DNA of 44,450 nt from Escherichia phage vB_EcoP-101101UKE1. Every line of letters begins with the position of its first letter. Positions within the stretch are counted from its first letter, which is position 1. The DNA lies in sequence record MZ234012.1, one strand, 5' to 3'. Of the stretch, positions 3,892-44,098 are shown one piece after another. A program made the translations under genes and the position numbers. Below the pieces are notes generated by a model. It was not told the DNA's origin. It saw only the letters and a program-made list of their open reading frames with translations, and searched no databases.

Positions 3892-3914
3892 ATTTACCGG
3901 ACAGTATAGATAAG
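3892..3914 (+). promoter_or_regulatory. phage RNAP promoter variant (ATTTACCGGACAGTATAGATAAG)
   Basis: Consensus-like element with a C-to-G change in the CACTATA core (CAGTATA), upstream of the gp1.1-like gene. T7 likewise has promoters directly before gene 1.1. Confidence 0.55.
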
Positions 3915-14716: not shown

Positions 14717-15716
14717 GCTTCGCAGCTTGTACAAAGACTCCGAGGTACTTGATGCAATCGAGCAAGCTACCGACGAGAAAGGTAATGTTAATTATAATGA
14801 GATGGCACGTGTATTATCGTGTCACCCTGTGGGTAAGAAGATTACCCGCCAGTTGGCTCGATACTGGCATGGTCAATTCAAGAAGACCAAGAAGAAAGGT
14901 GATTATTACCAGACCCTTCTGCAAGAAGATAAGCGTATCAAAGAAGAGCGTAAGCTCAGGACTCCTGACCGCTACGAGGATTTGGCTATTGTACCATTGC
15001 CTGACTCGCCTCATCGAAGTGTACTGGTAATCCCTGATACTCATGCACCTTATGAGCATCCAGATACCTTAGAGTTCCTTGCAGCAGTCGCGGCACGTTA
15101 CCGTCCAGATACAGTGGTTCACTTAGGAGATGAGGCAGATAAACACGCCCTCTCCTTCCATGACTCTGACCCTAATCTGGATAGTGCTGGCATGGAGCTA
15201 GAGAAGGCTCGTGTCTTCATGCACAAGTTGCACAAGATGTTCCCTGTGATGCGCCTGTGTCATTCTAATCACGGCTCTATGCACTTCCGTAAGGCAAGCG
15301 CCAAGGGTATTCCAGTGCAATATCTTCGCACCTACCGTGAAGTCTTTTTCCCAAATGGAGGTGGCGACCAGTGGGATTGGCAGCATACACATGTTCTTGA
15401 GTTGCCGAATGGTGAACAAGTGGCATTCAAGCATCAACCTGCTGGCTCTGTCCTAGCAGATGCAGCGCATGAGCGTATGAACCTTGTGTGTGGTCACTTG
15501 CACGGTAAGATGTCTGTGGAGTACGCACGTAATACACATGAACAGTATTGGGCTGTGCAAGGTGGCTGCTTAATTGATGAGTCATCCCGTGCATTTGCCT
15601 ATGGTCGTGAGTCTAAATACAAGCCAGCATTAGGTTGTGTGGTCATTCTGGAGGGTGTGCCTCACATTGTCCCGATGCAAACCAATAGCGACAACCGTTG
15701 GATTGGCAAGATTTAG
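14709..15716 (+). CDS. calcineurin-like metallophosphoesterase with ~100-aa N-terminal extension
   Basis: Phosphoesterase motifs IPDTHAPYEHPD (DxH), HLGDEAD (GD), HSNHG (NH) and CGHLHG (GHxH). Probable TTG start at 14709 after RBS aaggagg; the track ORF opens at 14577. Confidence 0.75.
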   Translation: MGKLRSLYKDSEVLDAIEQATDEKGNVNYNEMARVLSCHPVGKKITRQLARYWHGQFKKTKKKGDYYQTLLQEDKRIKEERKLRTPDRYEDLAIVPLPDSPHRSVLVIPDTHAPYEHPDTLEFLAAVAARYRPDTVVHLGDEADKHALSFHDSDPNLDSAGMELEKARVFMHKLHKMFPVMRLCHSNHGSMHFRKASAKGIPVQYLRTYREVFFPNGGGDQWDWQHTHVLELPNGEQVAFKHQPAGSVLADAAHERMNLVCGHLHGKMSVEYARNTHEQYWAVQGGCLIDESSRAFAYGRESKYKPALGCVVILEGVPHIVPMQTNSDNRWIGKI

Positions 15717-15734
15717 TTGACACTATAGAACAAA
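15711..15734 (+). promoter_or_regulatory. phage RNAP promoter (ATTTAGTTGACACTATAGAACAAA)
   Basis: One mismatch from the SP6 promoter core ATTTAGGTGACACTATAGAA. Overlaps the phosphoesterase stop codon. Confidence 0.75.
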
Positions 15735-15816
15735 GGGTTAGGTAAGACTTTATCGGCTGGCGTATCCAAATGATATTGCACTAGCCCTTGATTGTATAGT
15801 GAATGGAGGATTCAAT

Positions 15817-16320
15817 ATGTCACACTATGAATGTAAGAAGTGTCATAAGCGTTATGATTACTGTACTTGTGGTCAAGAGAAAACATCTTTTAAAGTTGGA
15901 GACAAGGTATTTCGTAATGAAAAAGATTCGATTCCTTGGAATCAATACTGCAAAGAAGCTGGTATTGACCCTGATAACCCTGTAACCATAGATGATATTG
16001 ATGGCATTAACTTGTGCTTTCGTGAGGTGAGAGGTACAGGTTGGGATTCCAAAAAATTCAAACTTGCATCTGATAAGTTAGACAACAATATGGTAACTCA
16101 GCCTAAGCACTACGAGTTCTTTGATGGTGTAGAGGCAATCACTATCATTGCCCGCAGTATGACTGAAAAGCAATTCGCTGGGTACTGCATGGGTAATGCC
16201 CTTAAGTATCGCCTGCGTGCAGGTAAGAAGTTCAATACTGAAGAAGACTTGAAGAAGGCAGACTATTATAAAGAGTTATTCCAGAAGCATCGTCACGAAT
16301 GTATTGATGAGGATATTTAA
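15817..16320 (+). CDS. conserved phage protein with N-terminal zinc ribbon (possibly DUF3310-like)
   Basis: CxxC...CxCG ribbon YECKKCHKRYDYCTCG, then PKHY...GNALKYRLRAGKK. RBS ggagga 6 nt before ATG 15817. Confidence 0.5.
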   Translation: MSHYECKKCHKRYDYCTCGQEKTSFKVGDKVFRNEKDSIPWNQYCKEAGIDPDNPVTIDDIDGINLCFREVRGTGWDSKKFKLASDKLDNNMVTQPKHYEFFDGVEAITIIARSMTEKQFAGYCMGNALKYRLRAGKKFNTEEDLKKADYYKELFQKHRHECIDEDI

Positions 16321-16321
16321 T

Positions 16322-16495
16322 ATGGAAGGTAAACTGTATAGAGGGTGCTTCGGTAACTTATATAAAGTAAGCCCTCGCGGTTTTGTATTGACCTCTGATG
16401 ATGAAGGTGCAATGTGGCACCTAAGTGCATATGGTTCTAACTTAGCATACTTTAAAGAGGCAATAGTCAAAGGTGTGATGAAGGAGGTGAAATGA
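16322..16495 (+). CDS. hypothetical small protein (57 aa)
   Basis: RBS gagga. Its stop overlaps the ligase start (ATGA). Confidence 0.3.
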   Translation: MEGKLYRGCFGNLYKVSPRGFVLTSDDEGAMWHLSAYGSNLAYFKEAIVKGVMKEVK

Positions 16496-17439
16496 ACATC
16501 TTCCAATTCCTAGGTCTTCCAGAAGACCACCGCAATCATCCATTCATGCTGGTGAAGCATCGCGGTGAAGTTCCTGAGAAGAAACTTACTTTTCCATGTT
16601 ATGCACAGGTGAAACGAGATGGAATATTCAGTGCTGTTGTGGTGCGCAATGATGGTGCTGTTGCCATCTTTGGTCGTACTGGTAAGAAGCTCGCAAATGT
16701 TGAATCCTTGGAAAAGACGTTTAGTGTATTTCCTGTCGGGTTGTATCTTGGTGAGTTGCAATCTATGGCTGTTGATGTTTATCTTGAAGCTCTGTCAGGA
16801 GTGGTAAACCCTAATCGTACAGAGCCACTTGACTTCATAGGCCAGCAGATTAAAGACAACCTGTATATCGACTTCTTCGATATGTTAACTATTAAGGCAT
16901 TCCATGATGGATTCACTGATGTTTCTTATCTCAAACGTTACGATGCTTTACATCGTCGTATCGGCACTCATCTTAGCGGGTGCAACGCTATCCTTCCTAT
17001 CACTCCTTGCCATAATGAGCGAGAAGTTGAAGCGTTTGCGCAAGAGCAAATAGATGCAGGACGTGAGGGTGCTGTATTCAAACTGGACTGCGATTATGAA
17101 GCAGGACACAAAGGTTATCGTCAGACTAAAGAAGTCCGTAAGGTAACTTATGACCTTACTTGTATTGGCTTTGAAGAAGGTAAAGGTAAATACAAAGGTA
17201 AGGTAGCTAACCTCATTTTCAAGTGGAAAGGGGGCAAGACAATCAAAGCTATGCTCGGTAAAGGGTGGACTCATGCAGATGCAGAACAGATGTTCCACGA
17301 TATTAAACATGGCGGACGGTTGAATGTCATTGGTAAAATCTTTGAAGTCAAAGGTCTTCAGGATTCAAGCAAGGGCAACATTCGTCTGCCCAAAGCGGGA
17401 GAATTAAGACATGACAAAGATGAACCAGATTTCTTTTGA
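16492..17439 (+). CDS. ATP-dependent DNA ligase
   Basis: Adenylation motif QVKRDGIF (KxDG), size 315 aa, and position after the exonuclease/endonuclease block. Confidence 0.85.
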   Translation: MNIFQFLGLPEDHRNHPFMLVKHRGEVPEKKLTFPCYAQVKRDGIFSAVVVRNDGAVAIFGRTGKKLANVESLEKTFSVFPVGLYLGELQSMAVDVYLEALSGVVNPNRTEPLDFIGQQIKDNLYIDFFDMLTIKAFHDGFTDVSYLKRYDALHRRIGTHLSGCNAILPITPCHNEREVEAFAQEQIDAGREGAVFKLDCDYEAGHKGYRQTKEVRKVTYDLTCIGFEEGKGKYKGKVANLIFKWKGGKTIKAMLGKGWTHADAEQMFHDIKHGGRLNVIGKIFEVKGLQDSSKGNIRLPKAGELRHDKDEPDFF

Positions 17440-17626
17440 TAGCATGAAGGCAACTCGTGCAGTTGAGGTAGCAGAAGCTATCTTTGAAACTTTATCATGT
17501 GGCATGGAAGTGCCATATACTTTACTTGCTGATGCAGAAGAACTTGGTCTTTCTGTAGAAGCTATCCAAGAGAAGGTTGACGAATTATATGGTACAGACG
17601 AAGAAGAAACCGACGATTTCATTTGA
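17411..17626 (+). CDS. small acidic protein (71 aa)
   Basis: RBS ggaga. Strongly acidic, ending DEEETDDFI. Confidence 0.4.
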   Translation: MTKMNQISFDSMKATRAVEVAEAIFETLSCGMEVPYTLLADAEELGLSVEAIQEKVDELYGTDEEETDDFI

Positions 17627-17764
17627 AGGAATGGAGATGCTTGAGATGATTCTCAAGCCTTCTTCTCCGAAGGTGACTAAGACTCATGAAGAGTTAATCG
17701 TTGATGAAGTGAAGCGTTACATCATGGATTGTGTCAGAGCACAACTGGTGGTCCAATGATACGT

Positions 17765-18217
17765 CCAGCTTCCTTCCTAGATATTCCTGAGATTATAAAC
17801 CTTGGGAATAAATATGTGGAAGAGGAAGTCAAGGTAGTGGCCCATCACTCAGCATCATGGAATGCAGAACAAAGCGCACATAACCTTTGCGCATCTCTTA
17901 GTAGGGAAGATTTATTCCTATGGGTTGCTGTAGATGAAGGGCGGATTGTAGGGTTCCTGTGGGCTGGCTATCACGAGTTGGCCCCTTGGACACCTGTAAG
18001 GGTTGCCTCTGACATTCTCTTTTATATTATACCAGAGAAGCGAGGAACACTACTTGGTATGCGTCTCATCAAAGCCCTAAAGCAATGGGCTAGTGATAAT
18101 GAATGCCCTGAGGTTCGCCTGTCTATCGCCTCTGGTATTAATGAAGAACGTGTCGGACGTATGTATAAGCGACTTGGCTTTGAACCGTTTGGCACTGTGT
18201 ATAACCTGAAGTTCTAA
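17765..18217 (+). CDS. GNAT-family N-acetyltransferase
   Basis: Acetyl-CoA-binding-like stretch RGTLLGMRLIKALKQWA and C-terminal RMYKRLGFEPFG. Start ATG 17765; the track ORF opens at 17729. Confidence 0.7.
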   Translation, partial: PASFLDIPEIINLGNKYVEEEVKVVAHHSASWNAEQSAHNLCASLSREDLFLWVAVDEGRIVGFLWAGYHELAPWTPVRVASDILFYIIPEKRGTLLGMRLIKALKQWASDNECPEVRLSIASGINEERVGRMYKRLGFEPFGTVYNLKF

Positions 18218-18226
18218 GGAGACAAC

Positions 18227-18436
18227 ATGGGTGTTGTAAAGAAAGCATTTAAGGCTATCGGTCTTGCTCAAGATGCACCACGTATTGAAGCCAAAGTCCC
18301 AGCACAGCAGCTTGAGCGTAAGCCTGAGACTGAAGCTGAAGATATTCAAATTGGTGCAGGTGGTGATGATGCGACTGCATCTGCAAAAGGTAAGCGCGGC
18401 CTTGTCCGTCCGGTAGCTTCTAGCTTGAAGGTGTAA
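18227..18436 (+). CDS. small protein upstream of portal (69 aa), possibly virion-associated
   Basis: Strong RBS taaggag. Placement analogous to T7 genes 6.7/7.3. Confidence 0.35.
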   Translation: MGVVKKAFKAIGLAQDAPRIEAKVPAQQLERKPETEAEDIQIGAGGDDATASAKGKRGLVRPVASSLKV

Positions 18437-18437
18437 T

Positions 18438-19988
18438 ATGAAACAGAGCACAGATTTGGAGTATGGAGGTAAGCGGTCTAAGATACCTAAGCTATGGGAG
18501 AAGTTCTCCACTAAACGTAGCTCTTTCCTTGATAGGGCGAAGCATTACTCCAAATTAACCTTGCCCTATCTGATGAATGACAAAGGTGATAACGAGACTT
18601 CGCAGAATGGATGGCAAGGTGTAGGTGCTCAGGCAACTAATCATCTAGCCAACAAGCTAGCGCAAGTACTATTCCCTGCACAGCGTTCCTTCTTCCGTGT
18701 AGACTTAACTGCACAAGGTGAGAAGGTTCTTAATCAGCGTGGCCTGAAGAAGACAGAGCTAGCTACCATCTTCGCTCAAGTGGAAACACGGGCAATGAAA
18801 GAGTTAGAGCAACGTCAATTCCGGCCTGCTGTAGTGGAAGCATTCAAGCATCTTATTGTTGCTGGTAGCTGTATGCTATACAAGCCGAGCAAAGGTGCAA
18901 TCAGTGCTATCCCAATGCATCACTACGTAGTTAACCGTGATACCAATGGCGACCTGTTAGACATTATCTTGCTACAAGAGAAAGCCTTACGTACCTTTGA
19001 CCCAGCTACACGTGCTGTAGTAGAGGTTGGCCTGAAAGGTAAGAAGTGCAAGGAAGATGACAGCGTTAAGCTGTACACACATGCTAAGTATCTTGGTGAT
19101 GGATTTTGGGAACTCAAGCAATCTGCGGATGATATCCCTGTGGGTAAGGTGAGTAAAATCAAATCAGAAAAGCTACCTTTCATCCCATTAACTTGGAAGC
19201 GAAGCTATGGTGAGGATTGGGGTCGCCCTCTTGCAGAGGATTACTCCGGTGATTTATTCGTTATCCAATTCTTATCTGAAGCGGTTGCCCGTGGTGCTGC
19301 GCTGATGGCAGATATCAAGTACCTGATTCGTCCGGGTGCTCAAACTGATGTTGACCACTTTGTTAACTCTGGCACTGGTGAGGTTGTCACTGGTGTAGAA
19401 GAAGACATCCATATTGTACAGTTAGGTAAGTACGCAGACCTCACACCTATTAGCGCGGTTCTAGAGGTATACACTCGCCGTATCGGTGTTGTCTTTATGA
19501 TGGAGACAATGACACGCCGTGACGCCGAACGTGTTACTGCTGTAGAAATCCAGCGAGATGCGTTAGAGATTGAGCAGAACATGGGTGGTGTATACTCCCT
19601 CTTTGCTACTACTATGCAATCGCCAGTAGCGATGTGGGGTCTGCTGGAGGCAGGGGAGTCCTTCACTAGTGACCTAGTGGACCCTGTGATTATCACAGGT
19701 ATTGAAGCTTTAGGACGCATGGCTGAGTTGGATAAACTGGCTAACTTTGCCCAGTATATGTCACTGCCATTACAATGGCCTGAGCCTGTCCTAGCTGCTG
19801 TGAAATGGCCTGACTATATGGATTGGGTGCGTGGTCAAATCTCTGCTGAACTGCCGTTCCTTAAATCGGCTGAAGAGATGGCACAAGAACAGGAAGCACA
19901 GATGCAAGCACAGCAAGCACAGATGCTTGAAGAAGGTGTGGCTAAGGCCGTGCCGGGTGTAATTCAACAAGAACTTAAGGAGGCGTAA
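18438..19988 (+). CDS. portal (head-tail connector) protein
   Basis: 516 aa, RBS gaaggtg, immediately upstream of scaffold and capsid genes as in T7 gene 8. Confidence 0.8.
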   Translation: MKQSTDLEYGGKRSKIPKLWEKFSTKRSSFLDRAKHYSKLTLPYLMNDKGDNETSQNGWQGVGAQATNHLANKLAQVLFPAQRSFFRVDLTAQGEKVLNQRGLKKTELATIFAQVETRAMKELEQRQFRPAVVEAFKHLIVAGSCMLYKPSKGAISAIPMHHYVVNRDTNGDLLDIILLQEKALRTFDPATRAVVEVGLKGKKCKEDDSVKLYTHAKYLGDGFWELKQSADDIPVGKVSKIKSEKLPFIPLTWKRSYGEDWGRPLAEDYSGDLFVIQFLSEAVARGAALMADIKYLIRPGAQTDVDHFVNSGTGEVVTGVEEDIHIVQLGKYADLTPISAVLEVYTRRIGVVFMMETMTRRDAERVTAVEIQRDALEIEQNMGGVYSLFATTMQSPVAMWGLLEAGESFTSDLVDPVIITGIEALGRMAELDKLANFAQYMSLPLQWPEPVLAAVKWPDYMDWVRGQISAELPFLKSAEEMAQEQEAQMQAQQAQMLEEGVAKAVPGVIQQELKEA

Positions 19989-20908
19989 TGTCTTTCTCAT
20001 TTACTGAACCGTCAACCACTCACCCTACTGCTGAAGAGGGTCCGGTAGAAACCAAGGAGGTAACAACTGATGCTGCTACTACTGATGTTCCTGCTGACGC
20101 TGGCACTGCTGTACAAGATGACAATGCTGGTGCACAACCTACTGAAGACACCGGAGGAGAAGCTTCTGGACAGCCTTCAGGAAAAGGAGACAATGGCGGA
20201 GAGAATGGTGAACCTAAGCCAGATGATACCGCGACCGACACTGAGGAAGTGCAATACTTCTTCGGAGAACATGAAGTAACAGTAGACATCCCACAGGATG
20301 TAACTGACAGCCTTAAAGAGAAAGGCATTGATGCCAAGCAGGTTGCCAAGGAACTCTATTCCAAAGGTGGCAAGTTTGAACTGTCAGATGCAACCAAGCA
20401 GAAATTGTATGATGCTTTTGGCAAGTTTGCGGTAGATGCTTACCTGTCAGGTCTTAAGGCTCAAAATGAAGCCTTCTTCCTGAAAGAAGCCAACGCAGCT
20501 AAAGAGTTGGAAGCAGCTAACACCCAACGCTTCTCTGATGTTTCTAAGGAAATTGGTGGCGAAGAAGGCTGGTCCCGTCTTGAGGAGTGGGCGCTTGAAA
20601 CGCTATCAGATGACGAACTCACGGCATTCAATGCGGTGATGGAGTCTGGCAACCAATACCTTCAGCAATATGCTGTGCGTGAACTAGAAAGCCGCCGGAA
20701 AGCTGCACAGGGTGATGACAAGCCAAACTTGATTGAACCCTCTGCACCTGCTGCTGCGTCTGAAGACAACGGCCCACTATCGCGTGAGCAGTACCTGCGT
20801 GAGATGATGACCCTTAGCTCTCGTTTCGGTACAGACAAGAAAGCGGCTGCTGAGTATCAGGCTAAACTGGATGCTCGCCGTCGTGCGGGGATGGCTCGCG
20901 GACTCTAA
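19988..20908 (+). CDS. capsid assembly scaffolding protein
   Basis: 306 aa, acidic and Ala/Glu-rich, RBS aaggagg, between portal and capsid. Confidence 0.7.
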   Translation: MSFSFTEPSTTHPTAEEGPVETKEVTTDAATTDVPADAGTAVQDDNAGAQPTEDTGGEASGQPSGKGDNGGENGEPKPDDTATDTEEVQYFFGEHEVTVDIPQDVTDSLKEKGIDAKQVAKELYSKGGKFELSDATKQKLYDAFGKFAVDAYLSGLKAQNEAFFLKEANAAKELEAANTQRFSDVSKEIGGEEGWSRLEEWALETLSDDELTAFNAVMESGNQYLQQYAVRELESRRKAAQGDDKPNLIEPSAPAAASEDNGPLSREQYLREMMTLSSRFGTDKKAAAEYQAKLDARRRAGMARGL

Positions 20909-20913
20909 TCAGT

Positions 20914-20936
20914 ATTTACTGGACACTATAGAAGGG
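20914..20936 (+). promoter_or_regulatory. phage RNAP promoter upstream of the capsid gene (ATTTACTGGACACTATAGAAGGG)
   Basis: Consensus match. A strong promoter before the capsid gene is typical of T7-like phages. Confidence 0.8.
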
Positions 20937-20984
20937 AGAAATGTCTCCCTAAAATATCACTTTGATTTATAAGGAGGTTTATTA

Positions 20985-22187
20985 ATGTCTACACCGAATA
21001 CTCTGACCAACGTTGCAGTCTCCGCTTCCGGTGAGGTAGACAGCCTGCTCATTGAGAAATTCAATGGTAAGGTGAATGAGCAGTACCTGAAAGGTGAGAA
21101 CATCATGTCCTACTTTGATGTTCAGACTGTTACTGGTACTAACACTGTAAGCAACAAATATTTGGGTGAAACCGAGTTGCAGGTTCTGGCACCGGGACAG
21201 TCTCCGGCTGCAACTTCTACTCAGGCCGATAAAAACCAACTGGTAATCGATGCCACTGTTATTGCTCGTAACACGGTTGCTCACCTGCATGATGTACAGG
21301 GTGACATTGATAGCCTGAAGCCGAAGCTGGCTACTAACCAAGCGAAGCAGCTGAAGAAGATGGAAGATGAAATGCTGATTCAGCAGATGCTGCTGGGCGG
21401 TATTGCCAACACTCAGGCTGAGCGTACTAATCCGCGTGTTAAAGGCCATGGCTTCTCTGTCAACGTAGAAGTTGCAGAAAGTGAAGCACTGGTCAACCCG
21501 CAGTATGTAATGGCGGCTGTAGAGTTTGCTCTGGAGCAGCAGCTTGAGCAGGAAGTAGACATCTCTGATGTAGCTATCCTGATGCCGTGGCGCTACTTCA
21601 ACGTACTGCGTGATGCAGACCGTATCGTTGACAAGAGCTACACAATTAGCCAGTCTGGTGCAACCATTCAGGGTTTTGTTCTGTCTTCTTACAACTGCCC
21701 TGTTATCCCGTCTAACCGCTTCCCTAAATACTCTGCTGGTCAGAAACATCACCTGCTGTCAAATGAAGACAACGGTTATCGTTATGACCCGACTGCAGTA
21801 ATGAATGGCGCTATCGCTGTACTGTTCACTGCTGATGCGCTGCTGGTTGGTCGTTCTATTGATGTAACCGGTGATATCTTCTATGAGAAGAAAGAGAAGA
21901 CCTATTACATTGACACCTTTATGTCTGAAGGTGCAATCCCTGACCGTTGGGAGGCAGTGTCTGTAGTTACCACCAAGCGAGAGACAAATGGCACGCCTAC
22001 CACTACTGCAACTCAGGCCGCACAGCATACTCAGGTTCTGAACCGTGCACAGCGTAAGGCTGTCTACGTCAAGAACGCTGCTCCGGCTGCCGCTGCTGCA
22101 AACCTGTCTGCTGAAGACTTGGTTGCTGCTGTTCGTGCTGTCATGGCTAATGACATTAAGCCGACTGCAATGAAGTCTGCTGAGTAA
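20985..22187 (+). CDS. major capsid protein
   Basis: 400 aa, strong RBS taaggagg, highly biased codon usage, own promoter upstream and terminator downstream. Confidence 0.8.
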   Translation: MSTPNTLTNVAVSASGEVDSLLIEKFNGKVNEQYLKGENIMSYFDVQTVTGTNTVSNKYLGETELQVLAPGQSPAATSTQADKNQLVIDATVIARNTVAHLHDVQGDIDSLKPKLATNQAKQLKKMEDEMLIQQMLLGGIANTQAERTNPRVKGHGFSVNVEVAESEALVNPQYVMAAVEFALEQQLEQEVDISDVAILMPWRYFNVLRDADRIVDKSYTISQSGATIQGFVLSSYNCPVIPSNRFPKYSAGQKHHLLSNEDNGYRYDPTAVMNGAIAVLFTADALLVGRSIDVTGDIFYEKKEKTYYIDTFMSEGAIPDRWEAVSVVTTKRETNGTPTTTATQAAQHTQVLNRAQRKAVYVKNAAPAAAAANLSAEDLVAAVRAVMANDIKPTAMKSAE

Positions 22188-22195
22188 TACCTATG

Positions 22196-22228
22196 CCCTA
22201 TCTACCTTGCGTAGGTAGGGTTCTTTTT
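22196..22228 (+). terminator. rho-independent terminator after the capsid gene (T-phi-like position)
   Basis: Hairpin ccctatctac...gtaggtaggg followed by ttcttttt. Confidence 0.7.
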
Positions 22229-43969: not shown

Positions 43970-44083
43970 ATGGAAAAGCTATACAACTTCATCTTTTCAG
44001 ACGGTGTAACCCTGAAGTGTTCCCTACGATTCGCACAAATTCGTGAGGAAGTACTAGGCACTACATACAAACTATTTAGCTGA
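43970..44083 (+). CDS. early small protein (37 aa)
   Basis: Begins 2 nt after the ocr stop, in the slot of T7 gene 0.4. No sequence similarity recognised. Confidence 0.3.
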   Translation: MEKLYNFIFSDGVTLKCSLRFAQIREEVLGTTYKLFS

Positions 44084-44098
44084 CACTATAAGAGAAGG
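44074..44098 (+). promoter_or_regulatory. degenerate phage-promoter-like element (ATTTAGCTGACACTATAAGAGAAGG)
   Basis: Strong resemblance to the consensus but with TATAAGAG in place of TATAGAAG. Confidence 0.3.

Follow-up and report, generated by a model that had tools for sequence, protein, structure and literature searches.

We find that the 153-residue protein encoded just ahead of the portal gene in Escherichia phage vB_EcoP-101101UKE1 is a GNAT-fold N-acetyltransferase orthologous to gp27 of SP6, K1-5 and K1E, that its gene is a core gene of SP6/K1-5-like phages rather than an accessory insertion, and that it is remotely homologous to Rac (gp28) of Pseudomonas phage LUZ19. The explanation that we favor, with a probability of roughly 0.45, is that gp27 is a protein acetyltransferase, dependent on acetyl-CoA and produced at the middle-to-late switch, which would modify host (and possibly phage) proteins in a takeover of the kind described for Rac. 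The gene itself is routine, with an acetyltransferase annotation in dozens of K1-5/SP6-like genomes; the interest lies in the target of a core gene kept by purifying selection in K1-capsule phages that are therapeutic candidates, and in the connection to Rac and to gene 7 of T7. The window referred to below is the whole stretch of DNA analysed, 44,450 nucleotides from sequence record MZ234012.1, and gp27 denotes its GNAT protein unless another phage is named.

The reading frame of the GNAT gene is free of stops from 17729 to 18217, the latter being its end with the stop codon included. Translation starts at the ATG at 17756 (MIRPASFLDIPE..., MIRPASF...), which gives an N-terminus conserved across 40 aligned homologues; a GGTGG Shine-Dalgarno-like motif lies upstream, and an ATGA at 17756-17759 overlaps the start codon with the stop of the preceding ORF. 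An earlier reading of the window from its letters, made without database searches (the sequence-only reading), had placed the gene at 17765-18217, correctly at its end and three codons downstream of the true ATG at its start. Its proposal of a ~150-aa GNAT-fold acetyltransferase is borne out by Pfam, PHROG 1249, an AF2 model and Foldseek. Three Pfam GNAT models score above their gathering cut-offs, namely PF00583 (Acetyltransf_1; 38.1 bits against 20.7), PF13508 (35.8 against 27) and PF13673 (24.0 against 23.6). The PHROG 1249 'acetyltransferase' profile matches over the full length (residues 1-151, E 2.4e-53), and this match, along with the conserved position (ligase, small ORFs, GNAT, small ORF, portal), places gp27 in that family. 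Pairwise dN/dS is 0.134 against SP6 (dS 1.37) and 0.127 against K1-5, and the gene is therefore under purifying selection. It is a real gene, already annotated as 'acetyltransferase' or 'GNAT family N-acetyltransferase' in the GenBank records of near-identical phages. Three minus-strand ORFs (144, 72 and 57 aa) had no match in a PHROG search, and an Rfam search of 15500-21000 matched no family.

Table 1. Features around the GNAT gene, in positions of the window.
Feature	Position	Strand	Evidence
Phage-RNAP promoter (ATTTAGTTGACACTATAGAAC), nearest upstream of GNAT	15711..15731	+	exact ACACTATAG site; PWM
ATP-dependent DNA ligase, 315 aa	16492..17439	+	PF01068 and PF14743, both above cut-offs
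gp25 homologue, 71-aa acidic protein	17411..17626	+	phrog_5860, E 2.4e-41; pI 4.05
gp26 homologue, conserved 56-aa ORF	17589..17759	+	phrog_6507, E 2.1e-37, full length; gene 26 in K1-5
GNAT-fold N-acetyltransferase, SP6/K1-5/K1E gp27 orthologue, 153 aa	17756..18217	+	Pfam, PHROG, AF2 and Foldseek, homologue alignment, dN/dS
Motif A, putative pyrophosphate-binding loop between β4 and α3 (R96-G97-T98-L99-L100-G101)	18041..18058	+	alignment to PDB 4j3g RGGGIG
gp28 homologue, gp7.3-like small virion ('wedge') protein, 69 aa	18227..18436	+	phrog_9033, E 1.1e-12; phrog_1320 (T7 gp7.3 family), E 1.9e-11
Portal (head-tail connector), 516 aa, start of recognisable structural module	18438..19988	+	PF12236, E 7.7e-88
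Next phage promoter (ATTTACTGGACACTATAGAAG), ahead of major capsid gene	20914..20934	+	highest-scoring promoter site in the window

The genes on either side of GNAT are closely packed (Table 1). The ligase is the last recognisable DNA-metabolism gene ahead of it, and its 3' end is overlapped by the start of the gene for the gp25 homologue, a protein with 18 D/E against 4 K/R residues. The sequence-only reading had described this protein as acidic, which it is, and as directly upstream of the acetyltransferase, which it is not, because the 56-aa gp26 homologue, missed earlier, lies between the two. The gp26 homologue shares 38 nt, read in a different frame, with the 3' end of the acidic gene, and its TGA overlaps the GNAT ATG. 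Downstream, the AAGGAG ribosome-binding site of the gp28 homologue overlaps the GNAT stop codon; the portal and then the scaffold gene follow, and the location just upstream of the structural module is thus as first described. The gp28 homologue itself is laid out as a basic terminus, an A/Q/P-rich centre, an acidic stretch and a second basic terminus, an arrangement described for portal-preceding gp7.3-like 'wedge' proteins (bioRxiv 10.64898/2026.05.18.726046). By this layout and its phrog_1320 match, it resembles the T7 gp7.3-like 'ejection wedge' proteins. We dismissed a hairpin at 17639-17658 that resembles a terminator, as it lies inside gp26 and has a poor T-tail.

Eleven exact ACACTATAG sites in the window share a common 21-nt consensus; these are the 11 strong phage promoters, and they have ATTTACTGGACACTATAGAAG in common. 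A weight matrix built from the 11 sites found no promoter in 15800-20800, where the best score is 2.1 compared with 30-44 for real sites. Since no promoter lies between the two listed in Table 1, GNAT is co-transcribed with the kinase, ligase, gp25, gp26, gp28, portal and scaffold genes, in a unit that the upstream promoter heads and that runs in the order kinase-ligase-gp25-gp26-GNAT-gp28-portal-scaffold. The phage RNA polymerase would transcribe GNAT from this promoter, with a contribution from upstream read-through, and the tightly packed string from gp25 to the portal is probably translationally coupled, so that gp27 should appear as the infection passes from DNA metabolism to morphogenesis. 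Two weaker promoter-like sites, each with one mismatch in the ACACTATAG core, occur at 3901-3909 and 44083-44091 (matrix scores of 25.5 and 24.6). We also note a strong terminator-like hairpin at 22195-22221 (an 11-bp stem, then TCTTTTTGTT) just after the major capsid gene, comparable to Tφ of T7.

The window comes from a podovirus of the K1-5/K1E/SP6 type (Autographiviridae, Molineuxvirinae, Vectrevirus). Over the 2 kb compared (17000-19000) it matches Escherichia phage vB-Eco-KMB47 at 100% identity and dozens of Vectrevirus genomes at 97-99.7%, and gp27 is 95-99% identical to Vectrevirus proteins and 76% identical to that of SP6. The gene 27 products of SP6, K1-5 and K1E have the same length and position as the window protein, with nothing material to separate them, except that a 66-nt imperfect tandem duplication in the K1-5 reference record, absent from the window, gives 175 aa instead of 153. 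This duplication in K1-5 gene 27 (L001:3757-4284), which reads HHSASWNAEQSA...ITFVHLLIET...HHSASWNAEQSA, is perhaps a genuine variant, perhaps an artefact of assembly; K1-5 is the only one of the 30 records listed whose match is split into two pieces.

Conservation of the gene extends to its surroundings. The order ligase-gp25-gp26-GNAT-gp28-portal is kept in all 28 related IMG/VR loci wherever the flank is covered (the sequence does not extend far enough upstream for two, leaving 26 in which the ligase could be counted), in a scan that used a narrow alignment and returned SP6-like loci only. In SP6-type loci, the identity to the window is 76% for GNAT, 81% for the ligase and 87% for the portal, indicating that GNAT diverges at about the rate of its neighbours. 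By tblastn, the family is found in 248 phage records, many already annotated as acetyltransferase, with hosts that include Escherichia, Klebsiella, Salmonella, Proteus, Erwinia, Pectobacterium, Vibrio, Aeromonas, Pseudomonas syringae and Marinomonas. Era103 (Molineuxvirinae) and phi-A318 and Alpheus (both Colwellvirinae) share the local order of the window, with the ligase upstream of GNAT, and the GNAT position is likewise kept in PM93 and VLCpiA2a. Outside Autographiviridae, Roseobacter phage SIO1 (Zobellviridae) has a phrog_1249 GNAT (L006:2474-2935, E 2e-36) amid tail genes, adjoining a 'tail appendage' gene.

The AF2 model of gp27, built on 40 homologues, has a mean pLDDT of 89.5 and a pTM of 0.86, and its elements follow the order β1-α1-α2-β2-β3-β4-α3-β5-α4-β6-β7, which is the canonical full GNAT topology. 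A Foldseek search with this model returned 862 PDB chains at E<=1e-3; the best 50 of the 862 are acetyltransferases without exception, and TM-scores are 0.7-0.8, with a maximum of 0.81 among the matches listed. GNAT proteins carry a motif A signature, Q/R-x-x-G-x-G/A, in the β4-α3 loop. In the phmmer alignment to PDB 4j3g, the gp27 residues R96-G97-T98-L99-L100-G101 fall on the RGGGIG of the β4-α3 pyrophosphate loop, keeping the first and last positions of the signature and replacing the central Gly with Leu. Across the 188-sequence family alignment, R96 is present in 98%, G97 in 89% and D86 in 80% of the sequences, and the most conserved positions are R3, D9, E23, G66, A84, D86, P93, R96, G97, L104, W111, A112, G127, G141 and G146. 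The narrow-family alignment additionally keeps Y90, C117, S123 and the S126-G127-I128-N129 stretch leading into α4. The usual α4 tyrosine (Y136 in gp27) is Tyr or Phe across the family. These patterns of conservation suggest that gp27 is probably an active enzyme with a slightly atypical P-loop.

A GNAT of ~150 aa directly before a gp7.3-like protein and the portal is found in four Autographiviridae subfamilies and one unplaced genus, the groups concerned being Molineuxvirinae, Colwellvirinae, Krylovirinae (with LUZ19 Rac), Waewaevirus and Ghunavirus. In LUZ19, the order is gp27 (small), gp28 (GNAT, 157 aa), gp29 (small virion protein), portal, scaffold, promoter and capsid, and the same order is seen in Axy23, LIMEzero (Waewaevirus) and the Ghunavirus phages AH05 and Henninger (Studiervirinae). 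The GNATs of LUZ19 and of these four phages belong to PHROG 3986 and not to 1249. The window protein has no phrog_3986 match and shares with that family its position, immediately upstream of a small virion protein and the portal. Rac (gp28 of LUZ19 and phiKMV) is likewise a single-domain GNAT of ~150 aa and occupies the identical slot, flanked by a small ORF on one side and by the small virion protein with the portal on the other, and differs in its host and in having no pairwise similarity to gp27: BLASTP finds no similarity between the two, and a narrow gp27 profile finds nothing in the single Rac sequence.

Profiles bring the two families together. A comparison by hhalign of the 188-sequence profile of the window family with a 6-sequence Rac-family profile, the latter assembled from phage tblastn hits, gave a probability of 96.5% and an E-value of 8.4e-10 over 126 co-linear columns, within a set of profile-profile comparisons that covered the gp27, Rac and T7 gp7 families. 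Rac-family members also match phrog_1249 directly (Axy23 2e-6, Rac 4.9e-4, LIMEzero 2e-3), and QYV, the stretch of β4 that was mutated in Rac, lines up with F89-Y90-I91 of gp27. We conclude that gp27 and Rac represent sister GNAT families in one genomic slot, and the data are compatible with a specific sister relationship between them. With pairwise similarity nil, the link is one between sister families, whose substrates need not be the same.

Rac is the only characterised member among the GNATs of this slot. It is toxic when expressed in P. aeruginosa and raises lysine acetylation (PMC7552054). The C-terminal domain of the host RNA polymerase α subunit is lost or cleaved in the presence of Rac only when its acetyl-CoA pocket is intact, and Rac itself has no protease activity (PMC7552054). 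The homologue at the Rac locus of LKA1 causes no α cleavage (PMC7552054), and the phenotype is therefore genus-specific even within Krylovirinae.

In the mechanism that we favor, gp27 would be a GNAT acyl-CoA N-acyltransferase that is folded and probably competent for catalysis. By general GNAT chemistry, acetyl-CoA would occupy the cleft between β4 and β5 and place its pyrophosphate on the 96-RGTLLG-101 loop, the acceptor amine would enter via the α1-α2 and β6-β7 face, and the base would be a conserved acidic residue, either E23 or D86 on β4. One or more proteins of the infected cell would be the likeliest acceptor, which would make gp27 a host-takeover enzyme that shares its ancestral gene line with LUZ19 Rac. 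A structural role is argued against by a phiKMV-like virion atlas, in which the structural proteins number 14, the gp7.3-like wedge among them, and an acetyltransferase is lacking. Speaking against the favored mechanism are the imperfect motif A, the non-invariant Y136, the many small-molecule enzymes (PAT/BAR, ArsN, polyamine and AAC(6') acetyltransferases) among the best structural and sequence neighbours, the nil pairwise similarity to Rac and the lack of α cleavage with the LKA1 homologue.

The slot also admits a reading that looks to its downstream side. The gp7.3-like gene with the portal is the sole constant neighbour of GNAT across the four subfamilies and the unplaced genus, while the upstream neighbour varies (ligase, RNA polymerase, exonuclease), and in every locus the 3' end of GNAT overlaps or abuts the start of the gp7.3-like gene, here with the AAGGAG on the stop codon. 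The occupant of the slot in T7 is gene 7, labelled 'host range' and placed downstream of φ6.5 with 6.7, 7.3 and 8, and the SIO1 homologue has tail genes around it. Each of these points would suit a function in morphogenesis and host range, whereby GNAT acetylates, or chaperones non-catalytically, a phage protein made alongside it (the gp7.3-like wedge, an ejection protein or a tail protein) and so tunes the host-specific infectivity of the virion. We regard this as unlikely, if a serious contender. Rac works on host targets, and GNAT is missing from the phiKMV-like virion proteome as well as from the atlas, although a transient modifying role would still be compatible with that absence. Gene order is collinear throughout Autographiviridae, and adjacency alone is therefore weak evidence for such a function. 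Moreover, the 'host range' of T7 gene 7 is a GenBank label, and our literature search found no paper on a gene 7 phenotype and nothing on T7 gp7 as a GNAT.

The range of acceptors handled by the structural neighbours of gp27 raises the possibility of a small-molecule acetyltransferase, which would acetylate a metabolite such as a polyamine, an amino-acid analogue or toxin, or an aminoglycoside-like compound, and thereby adjust the intracellular milieu or detoxify it. The best 50 of the 862 fold matches include the small-molecule enzymes PAT/BAR, ArsN, DpA, SSAT and AAC(6'), and acetyltransferases for phosphinothricin, bialaphos and arsinothricin rank among the best neighbours in PDB and NCBIfam, as do SSAT, AAC(6') and the polyamine acetyltransferase DpA. 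The same 50 include the protein N-terminal acetyltransferases Naa60, Ard1 and RimI-like enzymes, which rank as high, so that the acceptor classes represented are protein N-termini, amino-acid analogues, polyamines and aminoglycosides. RimI, PAT/BAR/ArsN, SSAT/SpeG/DpA, AAC(6') and Naa60 resemble gp27 in fold and in the layout of the cofactor site, with TM-scores of 0.7-0.8, but differ from it in sequence, with identities of 15-26% and subfamily scores below the cut-offs.

Indeed, an HMM search for the GNAT subfamily, a check proposed with the sequence-only reading, found every NCBIfam match far below its cut-off, the best being PRK03624 with 29.8 against 124 bits. RimI (TIGR01575) scores 21.4 against 86.4 bits, the phosphinothricin and arsinothricin N-acetyltransferase models NF040503 and NF040504 score 26.5 against 170 and 22.8 against 210 bits (ArsN1 being the one at 26.5 against 170), and among the aminoglycoside 6'-N-acetyltransferase models NF043067 scores 22.8 against 140 bits and the others <=16 against 225-320. 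A phmmer search of PDB sequences gave as its best match an uncharacterised Brucella GNAT (E 3e-5), and no acceptor-site signature is common to gp27 and cellular GNATs of defined function. The substrate is not readable from sequence because no subfamily can be assigned, and with so mixed a set of structural neighbours the sequence-only reading was justified in calling it an open question; our literature search likewise found no published function for any member of the SP6/K1-5 gp27 family. A small-molecule acceptor seems to us improbable, given that the scores of 22-30 bits compare with cut-offs of 124-210 and that Rac, the only characterised relative, is linked to protein acetylation.

T7 offers a view of what may become of a GNAT in this slot. 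Its gene 7 (NC_001604 19130-19531; L011:2131-2532) occupies the position in the order 6.7, 7, 7.3, 7.7, 8, downstream of promoter φ6.5, and its 133-aa product belongs to phrog_2746 (E 3e-51), also called 'host specificity protein A'. A Pfam search of T7 gp7 gave no GNAT match and no match at all. An AF2 model of a 98%-identical protein (pLDDT 90.6) has the order β1-α1-α2-β2-β3-β4-α3-β5-β6, which is a GNAT without α4, and all 50 of the PDB fold matches listed for it are GNAT-superfamily proteins (best E 8e-6). In BFVD, the neighbours of T7 gp7 beyond its own family are Autographiviridae GNATs, Axy23 included, and Rac-family proteins match phrog_2746 (Axy23 3e-8, LIMEzero 4.8e-6, Henninger 1.4e-5). 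Alignments by hhalign of the T7 gp7 family with the gp27 and Rac families are weak and co-linear (E 0.006-0.007). Unlike gp27, T7 gp7 has neither helix α4 nor the R-G of motif A, and gp27 does not belong to the T7 family, as it has no phrog_2746 match and aligns with it at a probability of 5% (hhalign E 0.007). We conclude that T7 carries a protein of predicted GNAT fold at the slot, which is probably non-catalytic and not an acetyltransferase. The initial statement that this gene is not part of the T7 core set holds for the gp27 sequence family and needs qualifying for the slot and the fold, since T7 gene 7 sits in the same slot with a GNAT-fold model. In the T7 gp7 family, H74, C113 and H121 are invariant and C119 nearly so, and these residues might form a metal site at the cofactor position.

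The conservation of the T7 counterpart despite its loss of α4 and of the motif A R-G bears on whether gp27 could itself be catalytically dead and use its fold as a scaffold, as apparently in T7 gp7, to bind a host or phage partner. The imperfect motif A (RGTLLG) and the non-invariant Y136 would fit such a binder. However, gp27, unlike T7 gp7, retains α4, R96-G97 and the SGIN stretch, and it exceeds the cut-offs of three Pfam GNAT models over motifs A and B, and we consider a dead enzyme decidedly improbable. Weaker again is the proposal that gp27 is an anti-defence acetyltransferase inactivating a host immune protein by acetylation of a key lysine in the manner of AcrVA5, formally a sub-case of a protein acetyltransferase, for which that mobile-element GNAT is a precedent (cited in PMC7552054). 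We think it very improbable: typical anti-defence genes turn over fast, whereas this is a slowly evolving core gene that holds one position in phages of widely differing hosts (Escherichia, Klebsiella, Proteus, Erwinia, Vibrio, Pseudomonas, Marinomonas), it lies in a middle-to-late rather than an early unit, and its only match to PADLOC anti-phage defence profiles (PDC-M11A, E 0.04, 10.8 bits) is not meaningful. AcrVA5 does not figure in the best 50 of the 862 PDB fold matches.

Returning to the favored protein acetyltransferase, the slot that gp27 has in common with Rac, with its shut-off of the Pseudomonas host RNA polymerase, and with T7 gene 7, with its decades-old 'host range' label and truncated-GNAT model, provides a concrete handle. 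A bolder extension, which we hold to be rather unlikely, is that SP6/K1-5 gp27, LUZ19 Rac and T7 gp7 all derive from one ancestral Autographiviridae GNAT fixed before the gp7.3-like wedge and the portal. Its conserved job would be to acetylate, as morphogenesis begins, a conserved protein target, which would be an ejection or virion protein or else a host factor, in a shut-off like that of Rac. The outcome would set which hosts are productive and so account for the old 'host range' label given to T7 gene 7, with T7 keeping a non-catalytic remnant. If the three proteins share both ancestry and type of target, a single acetylome experiment in a tractable E. coli phage could explain all of them and would add a second documented case of protein acetylation directed by a phage.

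Fused domains were set aside as a clue to function, as the longer distant relatives of gp27 are tandem GNATs or carry no other Pfam domain. Among distant relatives of the family (P0065, P0068, P0075 and P0088), several proteins of 318-385 aa match the family profile twice, which suggests tandem GNAT fusions.
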